In this document: piece after piece, positions 28,901 through 64,000 of the stretch | How the letters are laid out: each line of letters opens with the position of its first letter | Position numbering within the stretch: position 1 is the stretch's first letter | DNA from: Sphagnum compactum | Lineage: Eukaryota | Direction: 5' to 3' | DNA: 64,000 bases | Assembly: GCA_965153455.1 (NCBI GenBank) | Contig: OZ234494.1 | Location: 3,534,001 to 3,598,000 of the forward strand | Position numbers and translations under genes: made by a program | The notes under the pieces: generated by a model | Database searches by the model: none | What the model was told of the DNA's origin: nothing | The model's input: only the letters and a program-made list of their open reading frames with translations

Positions 28901-31900
28901 AGGTGTGCTAGCCATCCGTTGCCCGACTGCTGCTAAAATGCTGCAATTCTTCACCACCTCCACCTGCATAGCTAGCACACATACCTAGTCAGACCTTTCA
29001 TCTCCACTATACTTTCACAGGTAAAGAATATTGGAATCTGGGTATGTACACGTATGATTCTCATCTCCACTTGAAGAAGACCTGGATCAGATCAGTGCAA
29101 GCAGCTTAGGAACAAAAATATAGCAACATTGATGTGCAGAGTTGTCAGATTGGCGAATTTGTGATCTCAAACCCTGTGCCAACAAGAGTTCAAAGTGTTG
29201 GAAGTACCATACATTTGACAGCCGTCCTGCTTCCAGCTCCTTCCTGAACTTGCTCATCAATGACCGATAAACAGTATCTGCCTCTTTCTCTGGAACTGCA
29301 AAGCAAACTGAATGCTCACTACTGGCCTGCAATCAATTGAAAGCATTAGGCAAGAAAGAGAAGTGCCCTACATTGCCAAAAAATTGCTAAGTGGAGCCAC
29401 CATGGAAGCTAAAAGCATCCCAAGTTCAAGATTCAATTTGCATGTAAAAAGATTTGATCTCATACCTGTGAGATCATGACCACATTGGCACCCACACCTT
29501 TCACTGCTTCAAAAATCTCACTAGCTGTTCCTGGAACTCCTACCATTCCAGTCCTGCAACCAAGCACAGCTCATTTTAGAAAAATAGGGAGTACAAAAAC
29601 CAAATGCTGGTGTTCTTTTCTGTGCAAGTGAGGTCAAATCCTGGTGAGTGGAAAATCTTCAATCATTACAGAGAAAGGCGATGTGATAGCCAAGAAAGTT
29701 CCAGAAGGTGAGATTGTAGTTATATACCCTTCAACATTCACAAGAGCAATGTTGTCAATGGTAGCAAATCCTTTGACAAGTGAATCAGTTGAATTATAGG
29801 GGACTGGCTCAGCTTCTTCTGCAAGATCTGGAAGGGAGGACCTCCCAATCATGGTACCAGGTGCTCCAACATTGAAAACGTTGCGAATAGTGATTGGAAT
29901 ATTGTATCTCATCACTGGCATGGTAGTTCGAGGGTGTAATACATTTGCACCAAAGTATGACTACACAAATTCAGGCCAACAATAGGTGTTCAAGTTGCAC
30001 TTCTTTTTTCCAATAACTGGATACACGGTACTTCGACCCTGATAGTGATTTTCATATACCCAATAAAGAATAGGGTACCATTCTTTGGTCCAAGTTAGAC
30101 CTTCATTCCTTCCTACCATTACCAACATGGTCATGTCTGAACTTGAAAGGAAACCTTTCAGCAACTAAAGACTTCAACAGTGTCCCTAAACCAGCTCTTC
30201 GCAGATTTGAAGAGAACAGAATAAAGCTAATTTGTGGATGGTTTTTAAGACTCATTTAGTGAAGAAAACCTCATCTTGCAATGAAGGGCAGGCAGACAGA
30301 GAAGCTGCAAAGCCAAATCAGATCACAAGTTTGTACTCCAAAAATGGAGCCACAGGCAGAATAGGTAACAATTGAGGAGGTGACATACCATCTCCCAGGC
30401 CTCCTGATAAGAAAGGGTCTTGAGCACAACTGCTTCACTAACTGTCCAAACATGCCCCGGAAACATTGACTGTTATATGGATAACTTCAATTCCAGAACA
30501 AGGACTGCAGTACTGTCTGTGCCAAAGGAAAATAGCGTTCAAAGAGTGAGGAAAACTCAATAAGGAACAACAGTACAGAGATGTAATCCTGGTACTCAGA
30601 ATTCCCATAGATTCTGCAGTGGGGTCTAAGAAATCAATTACAAAACTTTGGTTGACTTAGACCAGAAACTGGGGTTTTTTCAGTTTACCCAGGTTTTAAG
30701 GTCTAGAGTAACTGCTAACCCGATGGTAATTCAACCTTGTGAAGCAGCAATGGGTACCTTTTCTAGGGTCAGCACTGTAAACACCATCCACATCTGTCCA
30801 GATAGTGACCTTCTTAGCCAGAAAAAGTGCTCCCATGATTGCTGCTGAGAAGTCACTGCCATCGCGCTTCAATGTGGTTGGAATATTTTCAGGCGTGCTC
30901 GCAATGAAGCCAGTGACAATAATGGTATCAGATGGGTGTTTCTCATACCATTTATCAAGTCTCTCACCAGAGGCTTGATAATCAGGGTCCACTTGTTGCT
31001 TATTCGTTGGATGTACCACCAGCACCTCTCTCGCATCCATCCAAACACAGGGCAAACCTCTCTGCAGGAAAATGCACAATCTTTGCTGAGTCCCAGCACC
31101 TCTCACTTTCTGTCATGTTTCAGTAACCATCAGTCTACACACAAAGGGGGTTTGTGCAGGATTGATTCCTGGGTTCAGCTTATATTTGAGGACAAACAAC
31201 TCTATAATAATACAAATACACTCCTAAAACCAATCAAGTCTTCAGTTCCACTGCTGTGAGTAGCACAATACACATTTCTATGAAATTGCAGAGAAATAAA
31301 TCTCCACAACAACCATTTGAAGCTAACAAGACAACAAGTGCAGTCATAACCTTTATGAGAGTCACTCACAAATTGTCAGACCCATACAATTGTGTCAGAT
31401 ACACCTACAATTGCATTCTATAGCAGGACATGCAGACAGGCATGCCTCAGATTTCCCAACACTTTATTTTCTACAGCTTAAAACACAAGGCCTTTCTGTA
31501 GTCAAACTGATATTTGTGAGACAGTTTCAAAAGGACGTGATTGATACCTTCCTCACGGCAGAAGCAAGCATCTGTGCTGACCATAATTCACCATGGCCCG
31601 CCACCCAATCTTCAAATGTCTCAGTGGCATGCCCAGCTGTATCCCAATAACATTTACAAACAAGAGATGTTTGGAATAAGCTCGAGGCAAAAAGTTGGCT
31701 CAGGATTAAATTCCTACAAACACAATTGTCAATATCTGCTTTTGAAACAACCAACTCCAAACAAGCTTGCTAGCTCTTTTGCTGTAACAACAGTCAGTCA
31801 ATCAGTGGTCAAAGGATTAGAAGCTATTACACACACCAATGTAAATGGCACGAAGCATGGCCCGCAGATTCTGGATATCTGATTCCAAGACACTCAAGAA

Positions 31901-34327: not shown

Positions 34328-37300
34328 ATGGAGCTCGGCTTGCACCTGGGAGGAGGACAAGGAGGAGGCAGTGCTGCAATGCCCACTGCTGCTGCAGGAG
34401 ATCAGACAACATGGGTTGATGCTTCTGGGTTCTTCTTCTCTGTTTGTGCAGGTTCTTCCTCTCACCCCTTTTCTTTCCCATTTTGTTTTGCTCTCTTTTT
34501 TCCTCATTTCCTTTGGGGTGGACATCCCCACATGTACACACATGATAGGCATCTATTTGTTGTGTGTACTTGTGAATTAGGGTTTGGAGAAACAAGATCA
34601 GAGTTTTCTGGATAACTGAGAAAACCTCTGCACCAAAAACCCCCTTTTTTGTTCTGTAGACGGTTTGATTCCAATGTTTGACTTGATAGCTCTGTTGTTT
34701 GTTGTCACATGAGCCTTCTTGAGAGTGCACAAAAAATGGGTTTTGGGACTTTTGGGAAATCTTTCAGAATTGGATGTTGGGGAGCTGATTCATGGGGAGC
34801 ATTTCAACCTGTTTGAAGCCATGTCTGCTCTTGAGGTATGCTGGCATTGACCTCCATTGCTGCTGCGAGCTGATGAATCAGTTTTTCTGGGTTTGGTTTT
34901 TGGTGGTTTTACATTTCCACTTCTCTTTGGGGTTTGTCAGAATCCTCCTAATTCCAAGTGTGGGAGAATGTCTCATTACTTATGAAGATATATATATTAT
35001 CATAGTGCGGAATCCTGTGCCAATCAGCAATTGCTATGGAGGTGTACAGAGTGAAGAATGTAGTAGTTTTGTTTGTTAAAACTTGAATGCGTTTTCTGTA
35101 TTCCATCTATAGATTATGGATCCCAAAATGGATGCTGGAATGGCAACAACAAAATACAAGACAGCTGATGAAGCAATTGAGAGTGGTGCTGCTCCCATCA
35201 ACCTGTCAGTTCACCAGCTTGTTGATGTAATGGACCATTTGTTAGCCTGTGAGGTATTGCAGTTTCTCAACTTGCATTTTTGTAATTCTTGCCATCTTTC
35301 ATCCACAATGAGATATCGATTCCTAAACCTAGAACTACAAGAGTAACAGTGCACACTTGCAGTTGAGTTCTGTGAGAAGTGAGTTTTTCCCCTGTACTAT
35401 TTGGGTACTTTTTTGGCACATCAATTGTAGTTGCTCTAGTTACTTGCAAGGAGTAGGAAATGAGCCAAAACTGGCACTGATGGTTTTTGTCCAATATGGT
35501 GACAAATGTTATTTGCTTCCTCTCCTTCAAATGCTTCTAAGTCTTCTGTGATTCTGATGGAGAGCTTGATTTGATGTTATGGGTTTTTGGCAGGCAACAT
35601 GGCATAAGGGCCATCCACTGGCACAGACAGTTTTCTCCTGCCTTTATTTGCTCAAGCTAGAGCGCACTACCCCAAATTCCTTGCTTCATGCTTTTTGCAC
35701 ATCTGTGCGAGCTACTTGTAGCTTAGTTCGCACTACAGTGGCTCTTGCAGACATTCATGAGGTGAAGCAAAATTCCTTCCCTTCCACTTCTATCTTTTTA
35801 AAGTTAAGAGGACGGTAGCTCATGAAGGAAGTTATCAGTTTGTCAAAGTGTATGGTAGGGGTGGTGGTGGAGCAGGAAGAGGATTTTGTGACAATAGCAT
35901 ATGGGCTGCCAGTGGAGGGAGAAGGTGATGCCAAATGCTTGTCTCTCTTGAGCTCTGTAGAGGAGACCATTCTGCGCCAGCTGCGTTTCACCAAGGGCAC
36001 AGCATCTGGCAAAAGAAAAGGTGGCCAAGGTACCTACTCTCTCTGATAGCTGTTTTTCTGCATATAACATAAGCTTGTTGTGTGGGTGTATGTGTGAAGC
36101 CGTACCCAAGTCAGCCATGCTTGTGTATATAGTCTTCTGTATTTCTGTTTGCAGCTTCTTATGGGGTGATGCCATGTTTGCAGAGTATACAGGGATCAAC
36201 TGAATTTCATAGTGGAATATCCTGATAAAAATCTTTGGAAATTGTTCAATCGAAACTGACCAAAGTGTCTTTAGAGTTGTAGGAGGCTGCAGAAAGGGAT
36301 GGTGAAGAACTGCGTTTTTGTCACTTACAAAAAGTTGGTCTCTTGTTCTGATGTGAAAGGGTGTTGGGAATTCAGATGCAGAGTGTTTGCAGGATGATCC
36401 AGCCTTGGAAGAGGGCTATTGTCAAGCAATTCTTTGTCGATTGCGCTTTCGTAAGGTGCTGTTACACATCTTGCTTCTAGACCACTTGCCGACCCTGTGA
36501 CCAAGGTGATAGATAACCTGTGTAGTTGTAGCTTGAATACTCTAGTCAGGATACTCTGCAAAACCATTGGTCCTCTAGGGCTACTGTTTGATTTTGCAAC
36601 TTTAAGCATTTTTTTCAATGTGTCACCAAACAAGGATTTCTGTTTCATCCTTGTTATGTGCGCCTCTTACAGGCATTTTTTCGCACATTAAGCTACATGG
36701 AAAAACCACAAGGGCGAGGGTTGGAAATGGCTCGGAAGCATATTGCAGCAGCTTTGTCTGAGCTAAGGGACATACGTTTGTCATCTGCATTTCTTGACCC
36801 TAGTTCCAATGTGGACCTGGCAAAGACTCGAAATCAGAACCTTTCATCAGATACCAATAGTAGAGATTCTGGGTTGGTCACGGAGAAGCCATCGACTGCT
36901 TCAGGAAGGCCAGCTGTTGGATTTGATGAGAGTGTTAATCGGAGATTTTTGGCACCAACCCCTCCACGTTCGATCAAAATTCTCTGCTGGGAAGATGTAA
37001 GCGCTTTTTCCTCACACTTGGGTTCATAGCTGAAACTTCCCCTGTTGTTTGTGCAGTCAACTTCAGGCACCAAATATGATATGGGTAGTCAGTGACTCTC
37101 CAGTTCAATCTGTGTTATGTTCATCTTGTAAGGGAATGGTGGATCTTGTCCACAATTATCAGATGCAGGAAAAAGGGAGTGCAGGAAAAGCATGTTATCC
37201 ATATGTTGTATCAAGCACGGGAGTACTGGTAGTTTTCTCTACTTTTCATGCGTCCTAAGTTGAATCGGTGATGAATTTCAGGCACTGAAGTACTTTGAGC

Positions 37301-40300
37301 AACTTTTTGAGGATTTAGACCAAATCTGCTCACTTCCACTTTCCCTTGGCCTAGAAGAACTCCTTCAGTTTTTGGTTGACTTCCAACAATCACAACCTGA
37401 CCTTTTTGCAAGAGCTCAGTTGCAGGTAAGAATCATCATTTGGTTCCACACAAAAAGACTTGTAGGGAGCAAAGAACCTCCTTTTGTTGAAGTTTCAGTT
37501 CCTCACACTCAGGACATTTTCCATGGTTTTTTCTGGGGACAGACCACATTGTCTTGGGTAGCTTTGAGTAGGCTTCTTCAAATGATCATGGTCAAGGGTG
37601 GTCCAGTGCTTCAGATGTATTTTTTTGTAGAGATTTTGTTTAGAGGTGCTGATTGGAGGCAAGGGGGGGCATGGTGACAACAGTTACTTATATTACAGGA
37701 TGACAAGCTATTAGGGCAGGAGCCAATGGCAGGTGCTCTCTATAAAGTGTTGGGCATGCCTGCAAATGGTATCAACAGTAATCAACAAACTCAGACTTTT
37801 GTCACCCAAGCTTCCCGGGTCAGCTTTTTCTCAAACCAAACTTCCAAAGAAATTTTATAAGAGAGGATTGCTGTGAAGAGAATTCTCTTATGAGTTGTGG
37901 TTCCTTATGAGTCAGTTGTGTGCATGTCAGGCTTGATTTAGGGTTTAGGGTTTATGAGCCAGAGCAGTTAAAAGGATTAGGAGTTGGCACTTTAAGATTT
38001 GCTGCAAAATTAGTTAGTGCATGGATAATTTATATAACAGCACTAGGGCCATACAAATGTGGAATTGCCTTTGTATCCTCAACTGATATTTTGTCCCATT
38101 TTTTAACGTTAGGTATAGAGGTTTCTGATCTGGAAGTCGATTAATGGGTTGAAAAATGCATCAATGATGATCAGGTATTTAATCTTGTTTGGTTTGGTGT
38201 TAGGGATACCTTGAAAGTTTGCTGACAAGGATACTGATGAGGCTGTTTGGTTGCCATTTTTTGCTGTCAAGGGAACAGTTAATGCAACACTTATTGAAAG
38301 TTATGTGCACAAATACAGCATGGCAGCGGCGCAAATTGGGTCGAGTTATTCTTGACTGGGCAAATCTTTTGCAAGAAGTAAGGAACACACTCAAAGAAAA
38401 AGTAATTTAACAAAGTGAGCATGTCTTTGTTGTAAAGGACCTGGCAGCTCTGGTACAGTTCACTATATTGCAGATCCCTGATTGGTGCTCCGAATTTGCA
38501 TGCCCTCTAACTGTAGGGGACCAATTGTGCTGACAATTTCAGACAAACAGGACATGACAATTCAAGGCTGAGCACTCAGGATGGATGTGCAGAGTTGGTG
38601 GACAGATAATGTGATAATGGCCTGGGCAGCAGAGCAGACTTGCTGGATTGTCACTCATTTTTTGATGTTGGGCTTTCAGCTTGACCTCTATGCACCTAGT
38701 GAATACTGCATGCTTTACTGGTATCTTCCTTCAGCATCCTTGAGGCCCAAGAACAGGTTTTCTTTTTGAGTTGTATCAATTGCCGCCTTGTTACTGAATG
38801 ACCAGTTCTAATTTTTAGTTTGTGATTTGCTTATAAGTACAGAACCTTACATGCATCTGTTCCAAGCTTTACTCACGTTGGGTGGTTACAATGTGGGTTC
38901 CTCCTCCTCTACAATGCAACTCTTGAGTCTGGTTGGAATTGGGACTCATGTTGGGCCTCAGCATTTGATGGGTCAAATTCAGTTTAGGGTTTAGTTTGAT
39001 ATGAGTGCCTCATTACTTATGATTTTCTGATGTATGCAAAATGTATAGGTACTTGGACCATGCATTTTTGACACTATTACATTACAAGCTGGCTAAAGAG
39101 AAGAGCCTTTTTGAGCACCAGGCTTCACCTCTTCCTGATTCGCCTGATTCAGGTCCCATGAACCCCAAACCCTAAACCCTTATTATCTGACTTTTTTCTG
39201 CTACATTGCATGCAATTTGGTACAAAGTCTAGGGTCTATGGAAAAGCTTTTGTTGGTATATAAGGAAGAAATAAGCATGAGGAGCAATTGGCAATTTCCT
39301 TCCTTAAAACTCACACCAAGGCATTTGCTGCTCTATTGTATTCTTCACCATCAGCCAAAAAGAAGGGGAAAAAGAAGAAAGGAGGCACTTCCATGAAGGT
39401 GACAGGAACAACACTCAAGGATGCGAAACTCACATCCTCCATCCTCCTCATCCAATGCTATATTGACTTGTGTAAGGGTTTCATTTGGGTATGTTTTCCT
39501 CCTGATTGTCCACATGTTTAGGCAGCAAACTTTCCTTATGTTAGGGTTTAGGGTTTGAAGGGTATCCACATCCAGCCAATAACCCAGGTAGTTGTGGGTT
39601 TCAACTCATCACTACACTTTTGTAATATGCACCCAAAGACTACCATCAATCACTACACTGGACGAGATGGTGTACAGTACTAAGTGATGTCTGGTTGTCC
39701 ATGAACAGATGTTGGCCGCTTTAACACTAGATTGCAAACTCGTCAATCGCACACCAATTTTCAACACAGAGCAAGAGGTCTCTCTTTTGGAGGCCCCCCC
39801 TCCCCTTCCCTTCTTCAATTAGGTAGCATTTTATGAGATAAGTGCCATGCCCTGCATTGCTCCATTGAGCAAACTTGGGGCCCTGCATGCCATAAAGTCT
39901 TATTTTGGCTTATTCTGGAGCTTGTAAATTTTCAGCTCAAAGTTCAAATTCCCACTATTAATAAAAATCTGGGTGTTTGGTTGTGTGAGGGGACAGAGGT
40001 TCTTGCAACGGTTTGAGATATTGTTCAAAGTCTTAGCACCAGAACCCATGTCTTACTTTCAGTTCAAGGAGGCAACTTCTCGCAACCACTTCTCTGTACT
40101 TTTTCACTTCCCTTCCTCTTTCCAATCTTCTTTTGTATTGCCCATGGGTTTAAACAGGGTTACAGGACACAAGGCTTTGCTTGACAAGGGCATCAGTCAT
40201 GGTGTATTGACTGAGATTGTATTTGTAGTTTACATTTGATGGGTAGTTGGAAGTTGCAGCTTGATTGGTGTTTGACAATTGGTGAAGGGTTTCGGGCCAT

Positions 40301-54400: not shown

Positions 54401-56499
54401 TAGGACATGACATATTAAGTAAATACTATTTAGGAGATGCAAATTTTTTGATGTCACATCAGTGTATTTAATAACAAACCAAATTTTTAGTTTGTGGTGG
54501 GTATAGAAAACCATGTTCACTTCAATGCGGCAAGTTGGGCAACTCAGGTGTTACATCCTTAAAATTTATTGGGACCCACACGTGTGTTCACACAAATGTA
54601 AAATATTTTGGAAAGTTGAAGTGCACTTTGGAAATATTTCCCTATTACATATAGAGAGATCTAATTATATTATCTGAAGGTCCCTAATTATAATGTAACC
54701 CCAACAACTTATTAGATATGAAAAGACATCACTATCAAACAATTGGGGATGCCATCATGGGATAGTGGCTACCATGAATGCTGTAATTATGATTTGGACT
54801 GTAGGGAAGGGTCTTCCTTAAACGCCAAGGAGAGCCCATGCCCCAACCCTAAACGGAAAAACAATCTCATTTGCAACAACCCTTTTGTCATGTCTTTCCT
54901 TTTTGTGACCCAACCACTCAATAGGAATTGAAGGGCAAATAATACAAAAGAGACAATCTATAGCAAAATTATCACAGTTTCAACAAGTTGCACAGTACAA
55001 ACGTGTTAACCATAATCCGTTAACGAAAGACTTTGTGCAAGCCTAATATGGATAGGAGATTAGAGAGTTTCATTTGCCACAAACATTAGGTTCTTAAACT
55101 ACGAATTTGAAATATTCACTATTATGAAATGATTTTAATTATCTTGATGATCATGTGTTTAACATCATCCCTCAAATAACATTGAAAAGAAATTCAATAG
55201 TTAAAATCCACTCAGACAATATATAATTTAGTATAACTAAGTGGATGGATATATTATTAAGCAATCTATCATCCATATTAAATTATATACATATCATATT
55301 CTCATAAAACCCAAGTGTGATTAGTATAGGTGGGAGGTACAATTAAGCAACGCCATCAATATTTAATCATAATTTCATCCCATCATATTCTCACCAGCAC
55401 CTTGAGATTAGTACGTGTGGATGTATGGTTGTTACGCAATATCAGCCATATTTAAAATTACACATAACACCCCATTATGTATTCCCACCAACATCCAAGT
55501 AGTGATTAGTACATATAAACACCTTGAAGCTGCTGCAGTTATTGAACTAGGGTAATTCATGGAGCGCAAAATTTAACCCTGTCAACAACACCGCCCATTT
55601 GATCCATAGGTCCCACTGTTGTTCATCTGGGCGTACTTGCTTGTAGATTGAAAAAATAAAATAAAATCACAAGTGCATTTGTTATGGACAAAAAACATGC
55701 TATCATGACTTAGACAGCTTCTATGAATTATTAGTTCAATTTGTCTACAACTCTTAATAATCCGTCCTGTACTACTACGACTACTAGACTACTACATTTA
55801 CATTTACGTCGTCCTCCAGGTCCATTGTGAATGAGTGAAGGTTGCGAGCATCGCACGCAAGCCCCAGGCCTGATTGTAAGTCGCTATTTCCAACCTTTGG
55901 AAACCTTGCATGCAAGCCCAGGCCCTAGGTGTCATCACTATTCAACCTTTGGAAAAAAAACCTGGCCCCAGCAGATGTCTCTCTCTGGGTACGCACCAAA
56001 TTGAAGCTATTCAGTGGTTGCCTCCATCCTTTTGAAAACGGGGAGAATATGTATTCACACGGTGGCCGCTGGGTTCGTGGATTTGTTTGGGCGGTGTGAA
56101 TGAGGGTAAATTATACAACGATGGATGGCAGCTAACGCACTAACTACCACCATGCGAGTACCCGGCGGGTCAGTGGTCGCTATCGGCCCCCTTTTAAAAA
56201 GCCGGCCGGGGGATGATCATTTCCCGGTGATCCCGGGTTGGTCAGTAGTCGCCATCCGTTGGAAACCCTAGAGCCAGCTGGGGTCCGGAATGGATGGATG
56301 GATGGATGAATGGATTGGATTGGATTGGATTGGATTGGATGTCCGGGCAAGCGCCTAGCGAAGGAAGGTAGACACAAGGCAGCAGGCCGGTCTCGAGAAG
56401 CTTTAAGAACTTTCCAACGGGTGCGGTGCGGGGCGGGTTGTTCTATTGGTTGCAGTGCGCTTAGTACAGTACGTGTATGGAACGACCAGAGAGGAGGGA

Positions 56500-57580
56500 G
56501 GGAGGGAGGGAGGGAGGGATGGAGGGAGCGAGTAATTAGAGAGGTCGTTTAAGCAAGCTCACTTTCTCTATCGTTTGCTCTGCAACAGATGATCTCCAAC
56601 TGCCTAATCACGATATTAAGCTTTGTAAGTTGTTTTTTTTTTTTCTCGGCTTTTCATGCAAACAAGCGACGTCTGTGATTTTTTTTGGGGTGTCGTCTCA
56701 TATGTATGAGCACTGATCACGTTGTTCTCTGTATTTTTTGTTGTTTGTTGTTGTTGTTGTTGTTGTAACTCCGGAGCTGTGCCTAGTTTTTTTTGTGACT
56801 TCTTCTCATATACATGTATGAGCACTGACCATGTTGTTCCATGTATTGTTTCCTCTTGTTGTAACTGCGGCGGCAGAGTCGACAGAGTCGACGAGTTTTG
56901 TACTTACAAGTAAGCCTTTGAGCAGTTAACAGTTTATGTCCTGTGGTTGCAGCTCCAGGCAGACTGCGTAGGCATAGCGCGCAGGGGAGCTCTGGAGGGC
57001 CGTGGGTTGCATTCAATTTGTGCTCTCTGAGATCTCATGCGCCGCAAGCAAGCAGAAATACATTGGTATATGAGTATTGTCAATCAACGTATACCTCTTG
57101 TTGATGTTATTCATGTCTTTTGGACTTGTAATTAGCATTCGAGCAGATGTCTTTTGGTCTTTTAATCTTTCGAGCAGTGAAAACCTGATTAATCAATCTG
57201 GTTGCAACTGCAGGAAGAGTTTAGGACACGCGGGAGTGAGTAATACTAGGGACGACGGGCATTTTGGGTTGCAGTCATGCTCTAGCCTTTTACAAGCCAG
57301 CAGCGAGAAGATTGCAAGAGTAGCCGAAGTCGAGCTTCCTCAAGTCATATTCGTCAGCCGCCTAGGACTGACCGTTGGGAAGTAATCTCAGATCTCTTCA
57401 GGTATGGGGTAGTAGGTAGTTAGTCTCATGCTGCACGTCCGGCAGGTGTGCCTTGCCATGCGTATGTATGTATGTACGTCCATACGCAGCTGCTGCTGCA
57501 AGTGTTTTACCCTTGCTTTCTTAATGTTTGAGCGTATAATTAGTGTTTGCAGGAATAGTAGTAGCAGCAGCAGCATATCG
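56500..57580 (+). promoter_or_regulatory. Putative spliced 5' leader of the 1025-aa gene
   Basis: GC-richer proximal region with (GGAT)n/(GGATT)n and (GGGA)n tracts at 56290-56527. Donor acaa|gtaagc at about 56909, acceptor ctgcag at 57213, donor cag|gtatgg at 57402, acceptor tttgcag at 57552. Confidence 0.4.
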
Positions 57581-60500
57581 ATGATGGAGAACAAATCGCT
57601 CAAAAGTGTTCAAAGCAGCCGCGGCGATGCAGGGCCTTCGCAATCGGCCTCCACTTCTTCTTCGCGACGACCAGGAGTAAGACTTTCTGCCATGCATGCT
57701 GCTGAACTGATCTGCCTTGTGGATGATATGCTGATGATGAGATATGTAAACTAGTCACGTTTCATGTCTCTCTGAAATCTCTACTCCGAATGGTGTTGTG
57801 TTTGATCATTTTCCACAATGCTGAAGGTGTAGTAGTGAAAGTCTAGATATTGTGGTGATGATTCCACATGAAGAGCATCATCTGTTTCATGTCTATTTCA
57901 CATCTCCACTTCTACTCCTCATGGTGTTGTTTTCAGCGCATGAATGGCGTTGTGGTTTGATGTTTGTCCACAATGCTGAAGTTGTGGTAGAGAGAATCTA
58001 GATATTGTGATGATGATTCCTCATGAAGAGGTGCTTCTGCATGAGCAGCCATTGTATAATATTGTCTGCAGATGTATATTCTGCTTCTTAATGCTTTCCT
58101 CTGGCATTGGAAGCTCGTAGAAATGGGTGAGCTGGTGGCAATGGGCCGCTTGATTAGACTCATGTTGAGATCTACATGGCTTCTAGGATTGATGTTTGGT
58201 CACGGTGCTGCTGCTGCAGAGTGATCAATCTAGCAGCTTCTAGCTCTGTTTGATTCTTTGGGTCATGATCATGAGTCACCACATACAATTACAGTTTCCC
58301 TCTGACTACGTTCATGTAAACTCTTCTTCTCCATAGCACTGGGAGCATCTCATTCCCTCACATTTGAGAAACTTATACTATGAGTTCTGCACATGTGTAA
58401 AATACAAGATATGCATTGATGAAGCTTCAGTTGCATGTGCAGCCTATGACACCCTGCTGATGATCATGTTTTCATGTTTATTTGTATTGTGATCAGTCCA
58501 TCCTTGATTCAGGATTGAGCTGTTCCACATGACCAGATCTATATTGCATGTTGAGATCTTTTCTATATATTGTGCTTGCATATCCAGCTGAGGAGATTTC
58601 TTGCTTAGATCACATGGTGCCTTAGAGGTCTTCAGATTGTCCACATGAATTATTTCTAATATGTAGTACCCTGGAGTAGTTAATTTCATCAAATGCACAT
58701 GAGGATCATGGTTCCTGCATGGGTGGATGCTCAGCAGTGGCACAGTTTCAACAGACTGGCCTGCATGTATGTCATCATTCTTAGACCCATCCTTGAATTT
58801 GACATCCTGAATGTATGTGTGTTACATTCATGACAGAAAGAAAAAATGGAGGAGGAGGAAGATCAGGATGACGTCTCAGGGTTTCGTGCTATGCTTCGTT
58901 TGCCGCCCTTCTATAATGTGCCTGCTGCAACTGATGATGATGATCATCAGCAATATGCAGCTCCTTATTCATTTAATCCAATGCCTCATGGTGGTTTGTG
59001 GCCATACCCACATGTGCCTGCTGCAGCAGCTCTGAATGATGAGCATCAAAATCTGGCAGCAGCTGATGCTCAGCAGCTCCCAGTGGATCTGCATGATCAG
59101 TCCAAGGATTGGGATTGCAGCTTCTGTTCCTCCAGTTTGTGGCCGTACTCACATGTGGTTCCTGCTAGTGCAACAGCAAGTGATGGTCAGGAGCCAGATC
59201 GTGATGATGCTCATGATGCACAATTGTGTGGTGGCCATGCTGAACATCAGCAGCTCCCACCGGGTCATCAGTTCAAGGATTGGGATTGCTGCAAGGGGGG
59301 ATATTGCTGCAGGTTCTGCTGCAGCTCCAATGGTGCAAATCATCATGTGGCCACGCATGATGATCAGCTGCCGGATCATGACTCGCATGACCACGACGGC
59401 CTGGCACAGCAGAATGATACTACTGCTGCTACAGACCCTATAGGCCCAGGAACAGGCACGAGCTTTGGAATCACATTAGGGATTCCGTGGGGTACGTTTG
59501 GAATGATTGTGTTCTGGACAACAGGACAGGAGCTACAGAGCCTAGTGGAGAAGGCAAGAAGGAATGACTTGCGTCTGGAAGTCATGGCGAGAGTACCAGT
59601 GGAGATGGATTGTCGTCTAGTGCAGGGGATTTGCAGAGGGGATTGGTACGCCTGCGTGAATGAGGAGAATGTGGTGACAGAGGTGTACAAAGTGGATGTG
59701 ATGGAGTCAGATGCGATAGCATGTGCCAAGTACAAAAGAAAGGTAGATCCCATCAGCGGCAGCGAACGGTCATATTGGGGAGGAGATGCCAACAAGTCCA
59801 ACGAGTTACAACGAGCATGCCGGGGTCTAGTGTCTTTGCCCAAGAGCAGACCCATGAAGAAGGCAAAAGTGGTAGTAGTCTGCGATGGGGAGGGGGAGAT
59901 GGCTGTAATCAATCCGGAGTGGACACCAAGCTCCAGATTGCGATTGTTTCTGCACGGCTCAGGTCTTGTAACCAACAGTGACCTTCAGGAAGAGTATTGT
60001 GAGTGGGTGTGGAACGATAACAGTACTGGATCAGCTTTAGATGAAGATGATAAAGATGAGGAGCTGCATCGCCTTCATTTCCACTTCATCGAGTACTGCT
60101 TCAGCGTCCTGGTGGGGTTCTCAAGTCAGCTGATTGACATAAGAGAATTGGGTGATCCCATTCCTGCCCACTTCATGCAACATGGCGCAGGTTTCCTCTC
60201 TGCGCCCGGATTCCCTGGAATCCCTGGAGTTAATCAAGAGTTTCCTGGAATTAGTCAAGTGGGTTTTCCTGGAATCCCTGGAATTACTGTACTGGGAATT
60301 CCTGTAATTCCTGGATTTAGCCCAATGGGATTTCCTGGAATTGGTCAAGCTGGATTTCCAGGATTTGGTCAAGCTGGACATCCTGCATTTCCTGGATTTG
60401 GTCAAGTTGGATTTCCAGGGTTTGGTCAAGCTGGATATCCTGCAATTCCTGGATTTGGTCAAGCTGGATTTCAAGGATTTGGTCAAGCTGGATATCCTGC

Positions 60501-61818
60501 AATTCCTGGATTTGGTCAAGCTGGATTTCCAGGATTTGGTCAAGCTGGATATCCTGCATTTACTGGAGTTGGTCAAGCTGGATTTCCAGGATTTGGTCAA
60601 GCTGGATATCCTGCATTTACTGGAGTTGGTCAAGGGTTTCCTGGAATGAGTCAAGTGCAGCCTCAGGGAACTGTTGATGATGACCATGCGCAGGAAACTG
60701 GTGGTGATGATGATGATGATGATGATGACGAGACAGTAACAACTTCCACACCTCTGTGGCAGCAGCAAGCCAGCAATGAAGCTTATAATGTCCTGGAAGC
60801 GACCACAGCGGAGGATGGGGAATGCAGTAACAACTTCGGTGGACTAGGGTTCCAGGATAATCAGCTGAAGCAGACTCTGCAATATTGTTCAGGGGAATGT
60901 TGTTCAGGCGAATGCAGTTACAAACGGGAACGCAGTAACAACAACGGACTAGGATTGCAGCTGCAGGATGATCAGCAGCAGCTTCCTCCTCCACAACAAT
61001 ATTGTTCAGTTTGCTCACCGCATTATCAGCAGCTGCAGATCGATGATGCCAATGAATTCCATGTGTTATGGGAGTGCACGGGTGCTCGGGAGATTTGGCA
61101 CGTGGTGAGAGAGGCGAGACGCAGACTAGGGTTGCCGAGATACTACGATGAATATGAACACATTACTGTTAGCTGGGTCCGCGGCGGAGCTGGTGTTCAT
61201 GCAGCAAACCAAGACTTAGCAGCTGCAGTTGTTGGTGACCCTATGCGATCATGGGATGTTCTGAGATCCAATTTGGTAGCCAATATCCGGCGTGAACGTA
61301 CTCAAATGAGGATTACTGGAGAGGGTTTCAACACGCAACGAGTGTTGTCTAGAGCATGGCAGGAGACCATCCTTACGGCGAAAGTGTACTGGAACTGTCT
61401 CCTGCTGCGGTTTTCTTGTGCAGCAGAACTAGAGGAGGAGGTGGTAGAACAAGAAGCTGATAACGATGATGATCAGTCTCATGCACTAGTACCCGTAATT
61501 GCTGCTGCTGGAGATCACAACCACCGCAGCCCTGCTCCAGCAAATCCTGCAATTCCACTTCCTCAGGCTGAAACCGCCCAGGTGCGTTACCATGCAGCTC
61601 TCGCCGTAGCATTTCACACTACATGGACTAGCGAGCGGTTCTTCGCACTCCGCATCGGCAGCATCACTGCTGCTCCTCGTTGGCAGCAAACTGTCCCTTT
61701 GAGTTTTACTTGGGCTTTTCACAACAGACCTGCCAATCCTCCTCCTGCTGCTGCTGCTGCTGCAGAGGCTGCAGGTGATGAATATTATGATGTTGTGCTT
61801 CCAGAGTCCTTGGACTGA
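57581..61818 (+). CDS. Uncharacterised protein of about 1025 aa with LINE ORF2 C-terminal (zf-RVT/CCHC-like) similarity and Gly/Phe/Pro/Gln repeats; 2 coding exons
   Basis: Uninterrupted 990-codon ORF 58846-61818. An upstream ATG exon 57581-57676 (32 codons, donor GGA|gtaaga) splices in frame to acceptor gacag|AAA GAA AAA ATG at 58837. Contains CSVC-x15-H-x4-C (CSVC...EFHVLWECTGAREIW) at about 61003-61098. LINE similarity is motif recognition only. Confidence 0.75.
60208..60650 (+). repeat. Coding tandem repeat, 57-bp unit (GFPGFGQA-GYPAIPGFGQA), about 5 core copies plus degenerate flanks
   Basis: Repeated ggatttccaggatttggtcaagctggatatcctgca, in frame within the 990-codon ORF. Confidence 0.9.
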
Positions 61819-61898
61819 AAACAACAACAACAACAACAGGGAAAACAAAACAAAGAAAACAAGGAATGTTGGTTTTTTGGTAGCAATGAGTCACAGCT

Positions 61899-62256
61899 TC
61901 TCACCAGTGGTCCCATATTTTGAGACATTCTCACCAGTTGGTCCCATATTTTGAGACATTCTCACCAGTTGGTCCCATATTTTGTCAGATTCTCACCAGT
62001 TGGTCCCATATTTTGAGACATTCTCACCAGTTGGTCCCATATTTTGTCACAATCTCACCAGTTGGTCTCATAGTTTCAGACATTCTCTCACCAGTTGGTC
62101 CCCATATTTTGAGACAATCTCACCAGCTGGTCTCATAGTTTCAGACATTCTCTCACCAGTTGGTCCCCATGTTTTGAGACATTCTCACCAGTTGGTCCCC
62201 ATATTTTGAGACATTCTCACCAGTTGGTCCCCATATTTTGAGACATTCTTACCACC
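61899..62256. repeat. 31-33-bp tandem repeat, about 11 copies, just downstream of the 1025-aa gene stop
   Basis: Unit ttctcaccagttggtcccatattttgagaca. Confidence 0.92.
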
Positions 62257-62274
62257 TGGTGTAACTTGTTACTG

Positions 62275-62450
62275 CGAACTGACTGTGTGAGTTCCTTTTT
62301 TGTTTGGGAACTTCAGGGAACGTTTGAGAGCTCTTTAATGTTAACTGTGAGTTCCATTTTTTAGGGAACAACTTCTGGGAACCTTGGGAGTTCTAATGTG
62401 AACTGTGAGTTCCATTTTTCTGGGGGAACTTCAGGGGAGCTTTGGGAACT
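62275..62450. repeat. About 60-bp degenerate tandem repeat, 3 copies
   Basis: actgtgagttcc(a)ttttt...gggaacttc(a)ggg at about 62282, 62344 and 62402. Confidence 0.6.
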
Positions 62451-64000
62451 TATTTCATCATTTATTTAAAACACTCATTTATTCTGAACTTTGTCATTGT
62501 TGGAAAAAAGAGTTAACTAGACTTCTATCTATGGATGCCTCTTCTTACCCATGGTTCAGCTGCTGGGTGTTTCCTAACCAGCTGCTGTGGTTAAGCTAGT
62601 ATATACTTAACCCAGCTTATAATTCACCATTGCCTCATTTTGTCCAAGTTATGTTCTCAAATTGAATTGATTCAAATTTTGAGGTCTTCATGAGATCAGT
62701 GTTTTCTTTTAGGGGGTGACTTTTTTTTTCTCTTTTTAACCTAAAAAAAATATGATTTCACACATACAAAGGATTTTCATCAAAAGAAAATAGCCCTAAT
62801 TTGCCAGGTTTCTAGAACAGGTTCCAGCAGGTAGCCAAAATTCATAAATTTTGTGAAATTTTATATCTGGTCTATAACCAAAATATTGCTATATCTTCTT
62901 GTGGATGATCACCAGTAGCCATCACAAAATAGGAATAAATAATAAATAGTAAATAATAATAATAACCTAAGTCTTTATCTGAAAAGACTTAGTTATATTT
63001 TTCACATTTTGGAACTCGGAATATAATTGTTGCAATGACGTTTCAATTGACAATTGTTATGTATACATATACATTGGTGAGTGAATTTAGTATTACCTAA
63101 TTTGAACACTCACTACTGAGCAAAGAAATCCTTCTCTCTCCCATTTGCATCAGTAGTAGTTGGGAAGTCCTAAACCCTAATAAGCCCTTTGGTCCTCAAA
63201 GGAAATATGTCCATCATGTGTAGTAGTAGTTCCCTAAAACCTAAACCCTAAACCCTAGGTAGAGTAGTTCATAGAAGCAGAGCAAGAATTATTCATTCAT
63301 ATTAAAAATGGCCATTTTCTCCCGACCACCCAATGCACCACCCCACTTGTTAAATCCATTCATCTATGGTCGCAAAACACGATATTTGTATGTGAAAATT
63401 TGATCTAGAGACAAATTCTCTAGAGACCATATTAGAAATTTGGCCATTGCCTATTATTGGAATTTTTGAAATTATATTTCAATTTGTACTATTGATATTT
63501 CTAAAATAAGTTGGTGCATAAGAGGGAAAAAAAATCAAATTAAATATTTGAATAAACTGCCAAAAGGACAAAAAAATGTAGATTTCAGATCTGAATAAGT
63601 TGGCAAAAAAATGGGGAAAAAAAATAAATAATCAGATTTTAAAAACAAGTTCGTAAAAGAGGGGGCTTAAATCATATTTTCAGATCTAGATAACTTGCCA
63701 AAAGAGGGGAAAAAATTCAGATTTTAGATTTAGCCAATTTGGCATTTAAAAAGGCCTTAGCCTTAGCCCTTTGCCTCCCTTTCTCCCCAATTTAAGGGTG
63801 CTTAGGGTTTTTCACAAGGTGGTTCAAAACTCACGACCTCTTTGGTTTAAATTTTTCAACTAACTTTAGGCTATACCTTAGGTTGTTTTATTTTAAGTTA
63901 ATATATGTTATTTCAAGTTATACTCTAAATTATTCAAGGTCATTCTATTTTATGTTATTATAAATTATTTTATCCTAAGTATAATAACTTAAAATAATCT

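Follow-up and report, generated by a model that had tools for sequence, protein, structure and literature searches.

Can the tail end of a retrotransposon protein survive within an otherwise unrelated host gene? This question is raised by a locus at positions 57581..61818 of a stretch of 64,000 nucleotides (nt) from the bryophyte Sphagnum compactum (GenBank assembly GCA_965153455.1, contig OZ234494.1, positions 3,534,001 to 3,598,000 of the forward strand). All coordinates given here are those of this 64-kb stretch, called the window, and residues are counted in the 990-amino acid (aa) protein P0001, which begins at ATG 58846. A preliminary description, made from the letters of the window, had read the locus as a spliced host gene that keeps the Cys-Cys-His-Cys (CCHC) knuckle and the following helix of the second open reading frame (ORF2) protein of a long interspersed nuclear element (LINE). 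The core of that description is supported here by homology, splicing, the state of the locus, and constraint. The explanation judged probable is that of a real, spliced, single-locus, protein-coding gene, present only in Sphagnum, which carries a fragment of the LINE ORF2 C-terminus and can be read as encoding an RNA/single-stranded (ss) DNA-binding adaptor.

Homology to the C-terminus of LINE ORF2

An exhaustive phmmer search of 1.84 billion representative proteins, with residues 640-990 as the query, returned three matches: the protein's own cluster and two other proteins, P0009 and P0010. P0009 (472 aa) matches with an E-value of 2.8e-5 over query positions 80-207, which correspond to residues 719-846 of the protein, and P0010 (126 aa) matches with an E-value of 3.7e-4. 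P0009 contains the Pfam domain zf-RVT (PF13966; E 7e-11), with a score of 43.1 bits where the Pfam cutoff is 27.5. Among 57 longer relatives of P0009, zf-RVT is present in 56, RVT_1 in 40, and in 14 Exo_endo_phos as well. In P0019, a full-length member of this family, the endonuclease occupies residues 10-256, the reverse transcriptase (RT) residues 545-787, and zf-RVT residues 1222-1292. When the family is compared with solved structures, human LINE-1 (L1) ORF2p is the best match (E 6.7e-66), far ahead of R2 (E 9e-24); thus, the P0009/P0019 family can be classified as an L1-like LINE.

Other methods arrive at the same segment. An hhalign comparison of eight Sphagnum rows with 17 full-length LINE ORF2 proteins yields one match (Prob 89.7, E 1.9e-6), which pairs residues 719-846 with P0019 residues 1266-1390, and a hidden Markov model (HMM) of the C-terminal part of the LINE proteins scores 28.9-33.2 bits on five of five Sphagnum proteins. 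With three full-length ORF2 proteins and the fragment P0009 as tblastn queries, only 61000-61380 is matched in the 64-kb window. A joint MAFFT alignment contains 27 columns in which every Sphagnum and LINE row agrees, arranged in the same order along a stretch of >120 residues. The four CCHC ligands, C720, C723, H739, and C744, are invariant in all eight Sphagnum rows and align with C-x2-C-x9-H-x4-C of the LINE proteins, the last part of zf-RVT in P0019; the start of the A..W helix follows. The loop of the knuckle has 15 residues in Sphagnum versus 9 in the LINE family.

Every alignment, whether by phmmer, hhalign, or HMM, begins at C-x2-C, and the sequence upstream of this point is Gln-rich and of low complexity. 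The N-terminal two thirds of zf-RVT (model positions ~14-57) are missing from the Sphagnum protein. The shared segment comprises the CCHC, formed by the final ~27 residues of zf-RVT, and ~100 residues that lie beyond any Pfam model; thus, Pfam is blind to it. Indeed, a Pfam search with the whole protein finds no family at E<=10, including no RT or endonuclease. These comparisons show that a segment of ~128 residues (719-846) was inherited from the very C-terminal end of ORF2 in an L1-like LINE. The endonuclease and the RT have been lost, together with zf-RVT over its first two thirds. Consequently, the two central claims of the preliminary description hold: phmmer, hhalign, and the family HMM agree that the knuckle and the helix after it, at 719-846, come from a LINE ORF2, and the absence of RT and endonuclease that it had reported is seen both in Pfam and in the tblastn result.

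Some searches with pieces of the protein gave little. Sub-threshold Pfam matches to a P5-ATPase, a ZNF462 finger, and Sporozoite_P67, found in pieces or in orthologues, arise from low complexity and were set aside as not relevant. In the ESM Atlas, residues 700-990 reach clusters named zf-RVT at scores of 0.87-0.88, which lie under the 0.9 line for a lead and can serve as a lead only. A sequence-profile search of the PDB with the C-terminal alignment found nothing relevant, nucleophosmin being matched through the acidic tract (E 0.16).

Structure and transcription of the gene

On the plus strand, a stop-to-stop frame of 994 codons extends over 58834..61818, and from ATG 58846 it encodes 990 residues with no internal stop. 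An upstream exon is joined to this frame as follows:

57581..57676, plus strand: coding part of the upstream exon, ATG at 57581, 96 nt, 32 codons, then a GTAAG donor
57677..58836, plus strand: intron of 1160 nt, GT..AG, with the acceptor ..GACAG/AAA at 58836/58837
58837..61818, plus strand: large exon, 993 codons and a stop, with the annotated start ATG at 58846

The 57676/58837 join is in frame; thus, the extended product has 32+3+990 = 1025 aa, and the gene product is one of 990-1025 aa, depending on whether it starts at 57581 or at 58846. All six annotated or predicted relatives that include an N-terminus begin at ATG 58846 or later. The upstream ATG, the frame, the donor, and the acceptor are kept in two orthologous contigs, L001 and L002, in which 31 of the 32 residues of the upstream exon are identical. 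An acceptor-like TTTGCAG site ends at 57552, and the upstream exon may start directly after it, near 57553. Residues 700-990 are 100% identical to those of an 857-aa S. compactum model, an unnamed protein product.

Evidence from RNA comes from four runs that were compared with 56000-62500: three metatranscriptomes from two studies (X1, X2, and X3) and a polyA run of the same species (X9). Contigs that match this region number 15 in X1, 8 in X2, and 12 in X3, with a likeness of 90-99%, and thus they come from related Sphagnum. One X3 contig (record 16, 253 nt, depth 2) contains the exact joint 57676->58837, with 1160 nt skipped between GT and AG; it covers 57599-57676, leaving 78 nt on the shorter side of the joint. 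The joint is seen in this one contig, in one of the three metatranscriptome runs with matches. Exon 2 and the 3' flank are covered by contigs, and the bins at 57736-58820, inside the intron, are at zero depth in all three of these runs. The evidence that the upstream exon forms part of a spliced mRNA is thin but direct. As to the layout drawn in the preliminary description, a spliced gene of about 1025 aa with the 990-codon exon joined in frame to an upstream ATG, the frame, the GT-AG joint, and the RNA contig all agree with it, and the junction across which it had proposed to look for reads is the one that the X3 contig contains.

Other features of the RNA contigs do not follow this simple layout. 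Contigs of two runs (X1 and X2) match part of 57302-57476, stop at 57476, and continue into other sequence, as do X1 and X2 contigs that match from 61196 onward. The continuations find no match in the window (up to three mismatches allowed) or in L001 and L002 (exact matching). Possible sources are alternative splicing to distant exons, a paralogue that shares the post-knuckle part, or an assembly chimera. The annotated 857-aa model, P0002, removes ~133 residues of a Gly/Pro/Phe repeat as an intron (~60187-60586). Contigs of X1 and X3 lie inside this annotated intron at 60512-60623, with no joint there, and the intron may be a prediction artefact. Past the stop codon, a 31-bp tandem repeat begins after 80 nt and occupies 61898-62254 (11.3 copies, 87% matches). 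It is matched by X1 and X3 contigs and may either be part of the 3' untranslated region or be a dispersed repeat covered from elsewhere.

Orthologues, copy number, and constraint

A word-based protein search finds seven clusters, all at least 90% identical, and those that carry a species label are all from Sphagnum: one from S. compactum and two from S. troendelagicum, the latter on different chromosome-sized contigs. A scan of metagenomes with the single protein gave no match; with the alignment as the query, it gave the contigs L001 and L002. Both are collinear with 56061-62471 of the window, the promoter side and the intron included, and in L001 collinearity is seen in the downstream flank as well, up to 63845; upstream, the extent of synteny is set by the ends of the two contigs. 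Within the 64-kb window there is a single locus, as judged by tblastn with the LINE family proteins. Thus, the synteny sought by the preliminary description is found, flanks included. The pattern it had associated with an ordinary element, many dispersed copies, is not seen in the window, L001, and L002, where there is a single collinear locus, or in the protein search, where the clusters are few.

Constraint at the DNA level was assessed in one species pair, the window and L001, while counts of invariant columns refer to seven non-redundant, closely related Sphagnum proteins. Over 968 codons there are 39 synonymous and 70 nonsynonymous changes, a ratio of nonsynonymous to synonymous rates (dN/dS) of 0.51, and the excess of synonymous changes is significant (binomial p 0.001). 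Neutral evolution, which the preliminary description had listed, together with missing expression and junction reads, as evidence against its reading, is not what this pair displays. If 111 substitutions are placed at random with the non-coding spectrum, the probability of creating no stop codon is 0.0048, with a mean of 4.8 stops expected. All 11 coding indels are multiples of 3 (an adjacent pair of 7 and 8 being counted as one of 15) versus 8 of 34 non-coding indels (Fisher p 7e-6); the intron differs from that of L001 by three indels, of 1, 8, and 13 nt, none of which is a multiple of 3.

Conservation is not even along the protein. In the post-knuckle part (753-860), 101 of 108 columns are invariant versus 641 of 812 elsewhere (Fisher p 1.3e-4); in the knuckle (719-752), the count is 25 of 34, and in the orphan region (215-450), it is 186 of 236. 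For knuckle and post-knuckle together, dN/dS is 0.41, from 5 synonymous and 7 nonsynonymous changes. From dN/dS, the stop-free frame, the in-frame indels, and the conservation of columns, it follows that the frame is kept by purifying selection and that, within the protein, constraint is strongest in the post-knuckle part of the LINE-derived segment.

Protein regions and their composition

The protein can be divided into the following regions:

58846..59487, plus strand: residues 1-214, acidic, His/Cys-rich, probably disordered; net charge -28, isoelectric point (pI) 4.4; no Pfam family
59488..60195, plus strand: residues 215-450, conserved orphan region with the GDWYAC..VVVCDG..INPE..EWVW block; AlphaFold2 (AF2) mean predicted local distance difference test score (pLDDT) 33.4
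60196..60654, plus strand: residues 451-603, Gly/Pro/Phe-rich coding tandem repeat with a 57-nt unit of the GFPGFGQAGYPA type
60655..60999, plus strand: residues 604-718, poly-Asp and Gln-rich linker with CSGEC repeats; net charge -20
61000..61101, plus strand: residues 719-752, CCHC knuckle C720-x2-C723-x15-H739-x4-C744, then ..AREIW
61102..61425, plus strand: residues 753-860, post-knuckle, predicted helical; LINE homology up to residue 846 (61383)
61576..61815, plus strand: residues 911-990, conserved Trp/Phe-rich tail

The motifs that had first drawn attention to the C-terminal third, C-x2-C-x15-H-x4-C, AREIW, and WDVLRSNLVANIRRER...VLSRAWQET, are all present in the translation of P0001. 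The knuckle segment is the only basic region of the protein, and the post-knuckle part (753-860) has a pI of 8.4.

The remainder of the protein, ~860 residues, is lineage-specific and consists of the acidic Cys/His N-terminus, the orphan region, the Gly/Pro/Phe repeat, and the poly-Asp/Gln linkers. This agrees with the earlier view that disordered repeats pad the LINE piece, a part of the core description judged to be supported. Within the N-terminus, a Cys-rich KDWDC.. motif occurs twice through an internal duplication (59070-59121 and 59239-59292 cross-match). UniRef names the S. troendelagicum orthologues "C2H2-type domain-containing protein"; Pfam sees no finger. In the repeat region, Tandem Repeats Finder (TRF) reports a period of 57 at 60330-60634 (5.4 copies, 95% matches), and residues 451-603 are 44% Gly plus Pro, with no Lys or Arg. 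The number of 57-nt copies varies strongly among the Sphagnum orthologues: P0003 has a long repeat, whereas P0005 and P0007 have almost none. TRF also reports a period of 15 at 60881-60914, within the linker. By eye, 60850-61010 looks duplicated (..NN.GGLGFQ...QYCSGEC.., then ..NNNGLGLQ...QYCSVC..), and MAFFT sets LGFNSD of the LINE proteins against the first copy.

The preliminary description had also proposed, more weakly, that 59530-60012 is the post-RT segment of a LINE ORF2. This proposal found no support: the hhalign comparison with the profile of 17 full-length LINE ORF2 proteins gives no match for the block, and for residues 215-450, in which it lies, a search among proteins of 544-1733 aa yields relatives in Sphagnum only. 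Identification of 59530-60012 as a post-RT or "wrist" segment was therefore set aside as unsupported. A search of the ESM Atlas with 215-450 likewise gave nothing, the best score being 0.79. At the other end of the protein, MAFFT aligns a block of the tail (~920-955) with the next conserved block of the LINE proteins; the HMM of this block scores only 3.5 bits, a score matched or beaten by 25 of 2000 shuffles. The tail (911-990) may thus be a further remnant of the ORF2 C-terminus, a weak lead.

Alternative explanations

Several observations weigh against a selected host gene with a LINE-derived, nucleic acid-binding module. A search with PF13966 itself matches none of eight Sphagnum proteins and none of three sub-fragments at E<=10; thus, the direct profile match to zf-RVT by which the preliminary description had proposed to check the homology was not obtained. 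The link to LINEs is transitive and passes through one family, at ~30% identity. A ~12% sample of the same-species polyA run, X9, has no reads on 56000-62500, and splicing is supported by a single low-depth contig from a relative. Substitution identity between the window and L001 is ~96% in exons and intron alike, and a dN/dS of 0.51 represents only moderate constraint. The whole protein, with a pI of 4.6, is very acidic, which is unusual for a nucleic-acid binder. AF2 models of residues 700-990 (mean pLDDT 40.8) and 215-450 (33.4) are both too poor to be used as evidence of a fold. Finally, for human ORF2p, RNA binding in vitro is reported to show no significant change when the knuckle is destroyed (PMC3821027).

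Part of this evidence would also fit a passenger relic, in which an old 3' fragment of a LINE became exonic sequence of an orphan gene that arose recently in Sphagnum and is merely tolerated there, any function residing elsewhere, for example in 215-450 or in the repeats. Such a relic would account for the modest dN/dS, 0.51 overall and 0.41 on the knuckle and post-knuckle with its few changes (5 synonymous, 7 nonsynonymous), for the similar identities of exons and intron, and for a knuckle loop that has gained 6 residues relative to the LINE and is variable (25 of 34 columns invariant). However, the post-knuckle is the most conserved part of the protein (101 of 108 columns invariant, p 1.3e-4), and all four CCHC ligands are invariant as well; a passenger is considered unlikely. 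A quite different objection is that the resemblance itself reflects chance or convergence, a Cys/His-rich and Trp-rich helical region merely looking like a LINE tail. The lack of a direct Pfam match, an hhalign probability of 89.7 and not >95, and Atlas scores of 0.87-0.89, below the 0.9 line, can be cited in its favor. However, an E-value of 2.8e-5 against 1.84 billion proteins, the 27 columns that Sphagnum and LINE proteins share without variation, in the same order along >120 residues, and the identical boundaries given by independent methods leave chance highly improbable.

If the homology is real, its direction could in principle be reversed, with the LINE family having gained its post-knuckle extension from a host gene of this kind. 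The ~100 post-knuckle residues do lie outside any Pfam model, and the exhaustive search matched them to one LINE family only. However, the shared segment starts inside zf-RVT, at the CCHC, and zf-RVT is a domain of LINE ORF2; moreover, only one genus has the host gene, versus at least 57 diverged clusters of the LINE family. This direction of transfer, too, is very hard to credit. There is also the view that the locus is no host gene at all, being instead an ordinary mobile element or a non-autonomous LINE derivative. The LINE-like segment itself, and nothing more, speaks for this view. Against it stand the one locus in the window, the few annotated copies (S. compactum 1, S. troendelagicum 2), flanks and intron that are collinear with L001 and L002, the spliced intron, and the frame-preserving indels; it is thus largely refuted and keeps only the slightest probability. 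A LINE origin within a functional gene is held to be quite likely.

Proposed function

In the explanation preferred here, a LINE ORF2 C-terminal fragment, consisting of the CCHC and the ~100-residue helical segment, was kept in a Sphagnum host gene. The retained module would still fold around zinc and bind single-stranded nucleic acid, as is thought for the C-terminal domains (CTDs) of ORF2p, while the repeats and acidic tracts may serve as disordered spacers or interaction regions. Binding by the module, together with such spacers, would make the protein an RNA/ssDNA-binding adaptor. The analogy is with human ORF2p. Its C-terminal segment is reported to bind RNA non-specifically in vitro (PMC3821027), and its CTD is described in a second study as needed for retrotransposition and as possibly binding single-stranded nucleic acid or melting it (PMC10830420). 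The same study describes what the CCHC region at the C-terminus of ORF2 does as still unclear (PMC10830420). Nucleic-acid binding as the retained activity is put forward only tentatively, as the likeliest function but with a chance somewhat short of even.

The adaptor might also compete with LINE ORF2p for its RNA or its target. Taken further, the gene could be a genus-wide, LINE-derived restriction factor, whose free-standing knuckle module, attached to the disordered acidic and Gly/Pro/Phe repeats, competes with the ORF2p of active L1-like LINEs for template RNA or target DNA, or sequesters LINE ribonucleoproteins, and thereby damps retrotransposition in Sphagnum. This extension is regarded as improbable; if it were true, no earlier case of a C-terminal ORF2 domain domesticated on its own would precede it.

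Other open reading frames in the window

Two further exon-sized open reading frames (ORFs) look like parts of ordinary host genes by their Pfam matches:

30696..31112, minus strand: AA_kinase, E 4.3e-16
37264..37677, plus strand: NAA35-like TPR, E 1.7e-7

The 13 other ORFs of at least 130 aa in the window match no Pfam family.

Comparison with known systems

The closest system is the P0009/P0019 L1-like LINE family itself, with which the Sphagnum protein shares the CCHC and ~100 residues after it, among them the motifs ...GLP..Y..., WD.LR, and ...W[QR]..I. That family combines an endonuclease, RVT_1, and zf-RVT, whereas in the Sphagnum protein the two enzymatic domains are missing and zf-RVT is reduced to its end; the Sphagnum gene differs from the LINE in its intron, its single locus, its ~860 residues of unrelated sequence, and its 15-residue loop. 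The CTD of human LINE-1 ORF2p occupies the same place in the ORF2 architecture as the region from which the Sphagnum segment would derive. However, the PDB profile search found no sequence similarity between this segment and human ORF2p or other solved chains.

Host genes derived from transposable elements (TEs) are known elsewhere, among them L1TD1, from L1 ORF1, and in plants FHY3/FAR1 and MUSTANG, from DNA transposases. As in these genes, a piece of a mobile-element protein has been retained by the host in a constrained gene, which is probably single-copy and expressed. The donor module is different, however, being the C-terminal knuckle region of ORF2 and not ORF1, as in L1TD1, or a transposase, as in FHY3/FAR1 and MUSTANG. 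Nearly all host genes of TE origin known so far trace back to transposases, integrases, Gag, or envelope proteins, and pieces of LINE ORF2 are rarely kept; a stand-alone gene domesticated from the C-terminal knuckle of ORF2 is not known to have been described. A full-text literature search for zf-RVT or ORF2 domesticates returned only integrated domains of NLR receptors (nucleotide-binding, with leucine-rich repeats) and general reviews, which does not prove that none exists. For immune receptors of the NLR type in plants, zf-RVT is listed as an integrated domain (PMC4759884). These NLRs, as described there, share with the Sphagnum gene a LINE ORF2 zinc-binding piece inside a plant host gene (PMC4759884). 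However, the NLRs carry a zf-RVT that Pfam recognizes, whereas the Sphagnum protein has only the end of the knuckle domain and the post-knuckle, with no NLR domain or other known domain.

Thus, the gene is best described as carrying a piece of the C-terminus of LINE ORF2 that was domesticated and is restricted to one genus. The domestication of TE proteins is already well established, and this gene would add a bryophyte example. As a natural protein that keeps only the ORF2 knuckle module under selection, it would also offer an independent handle on the role of that module.

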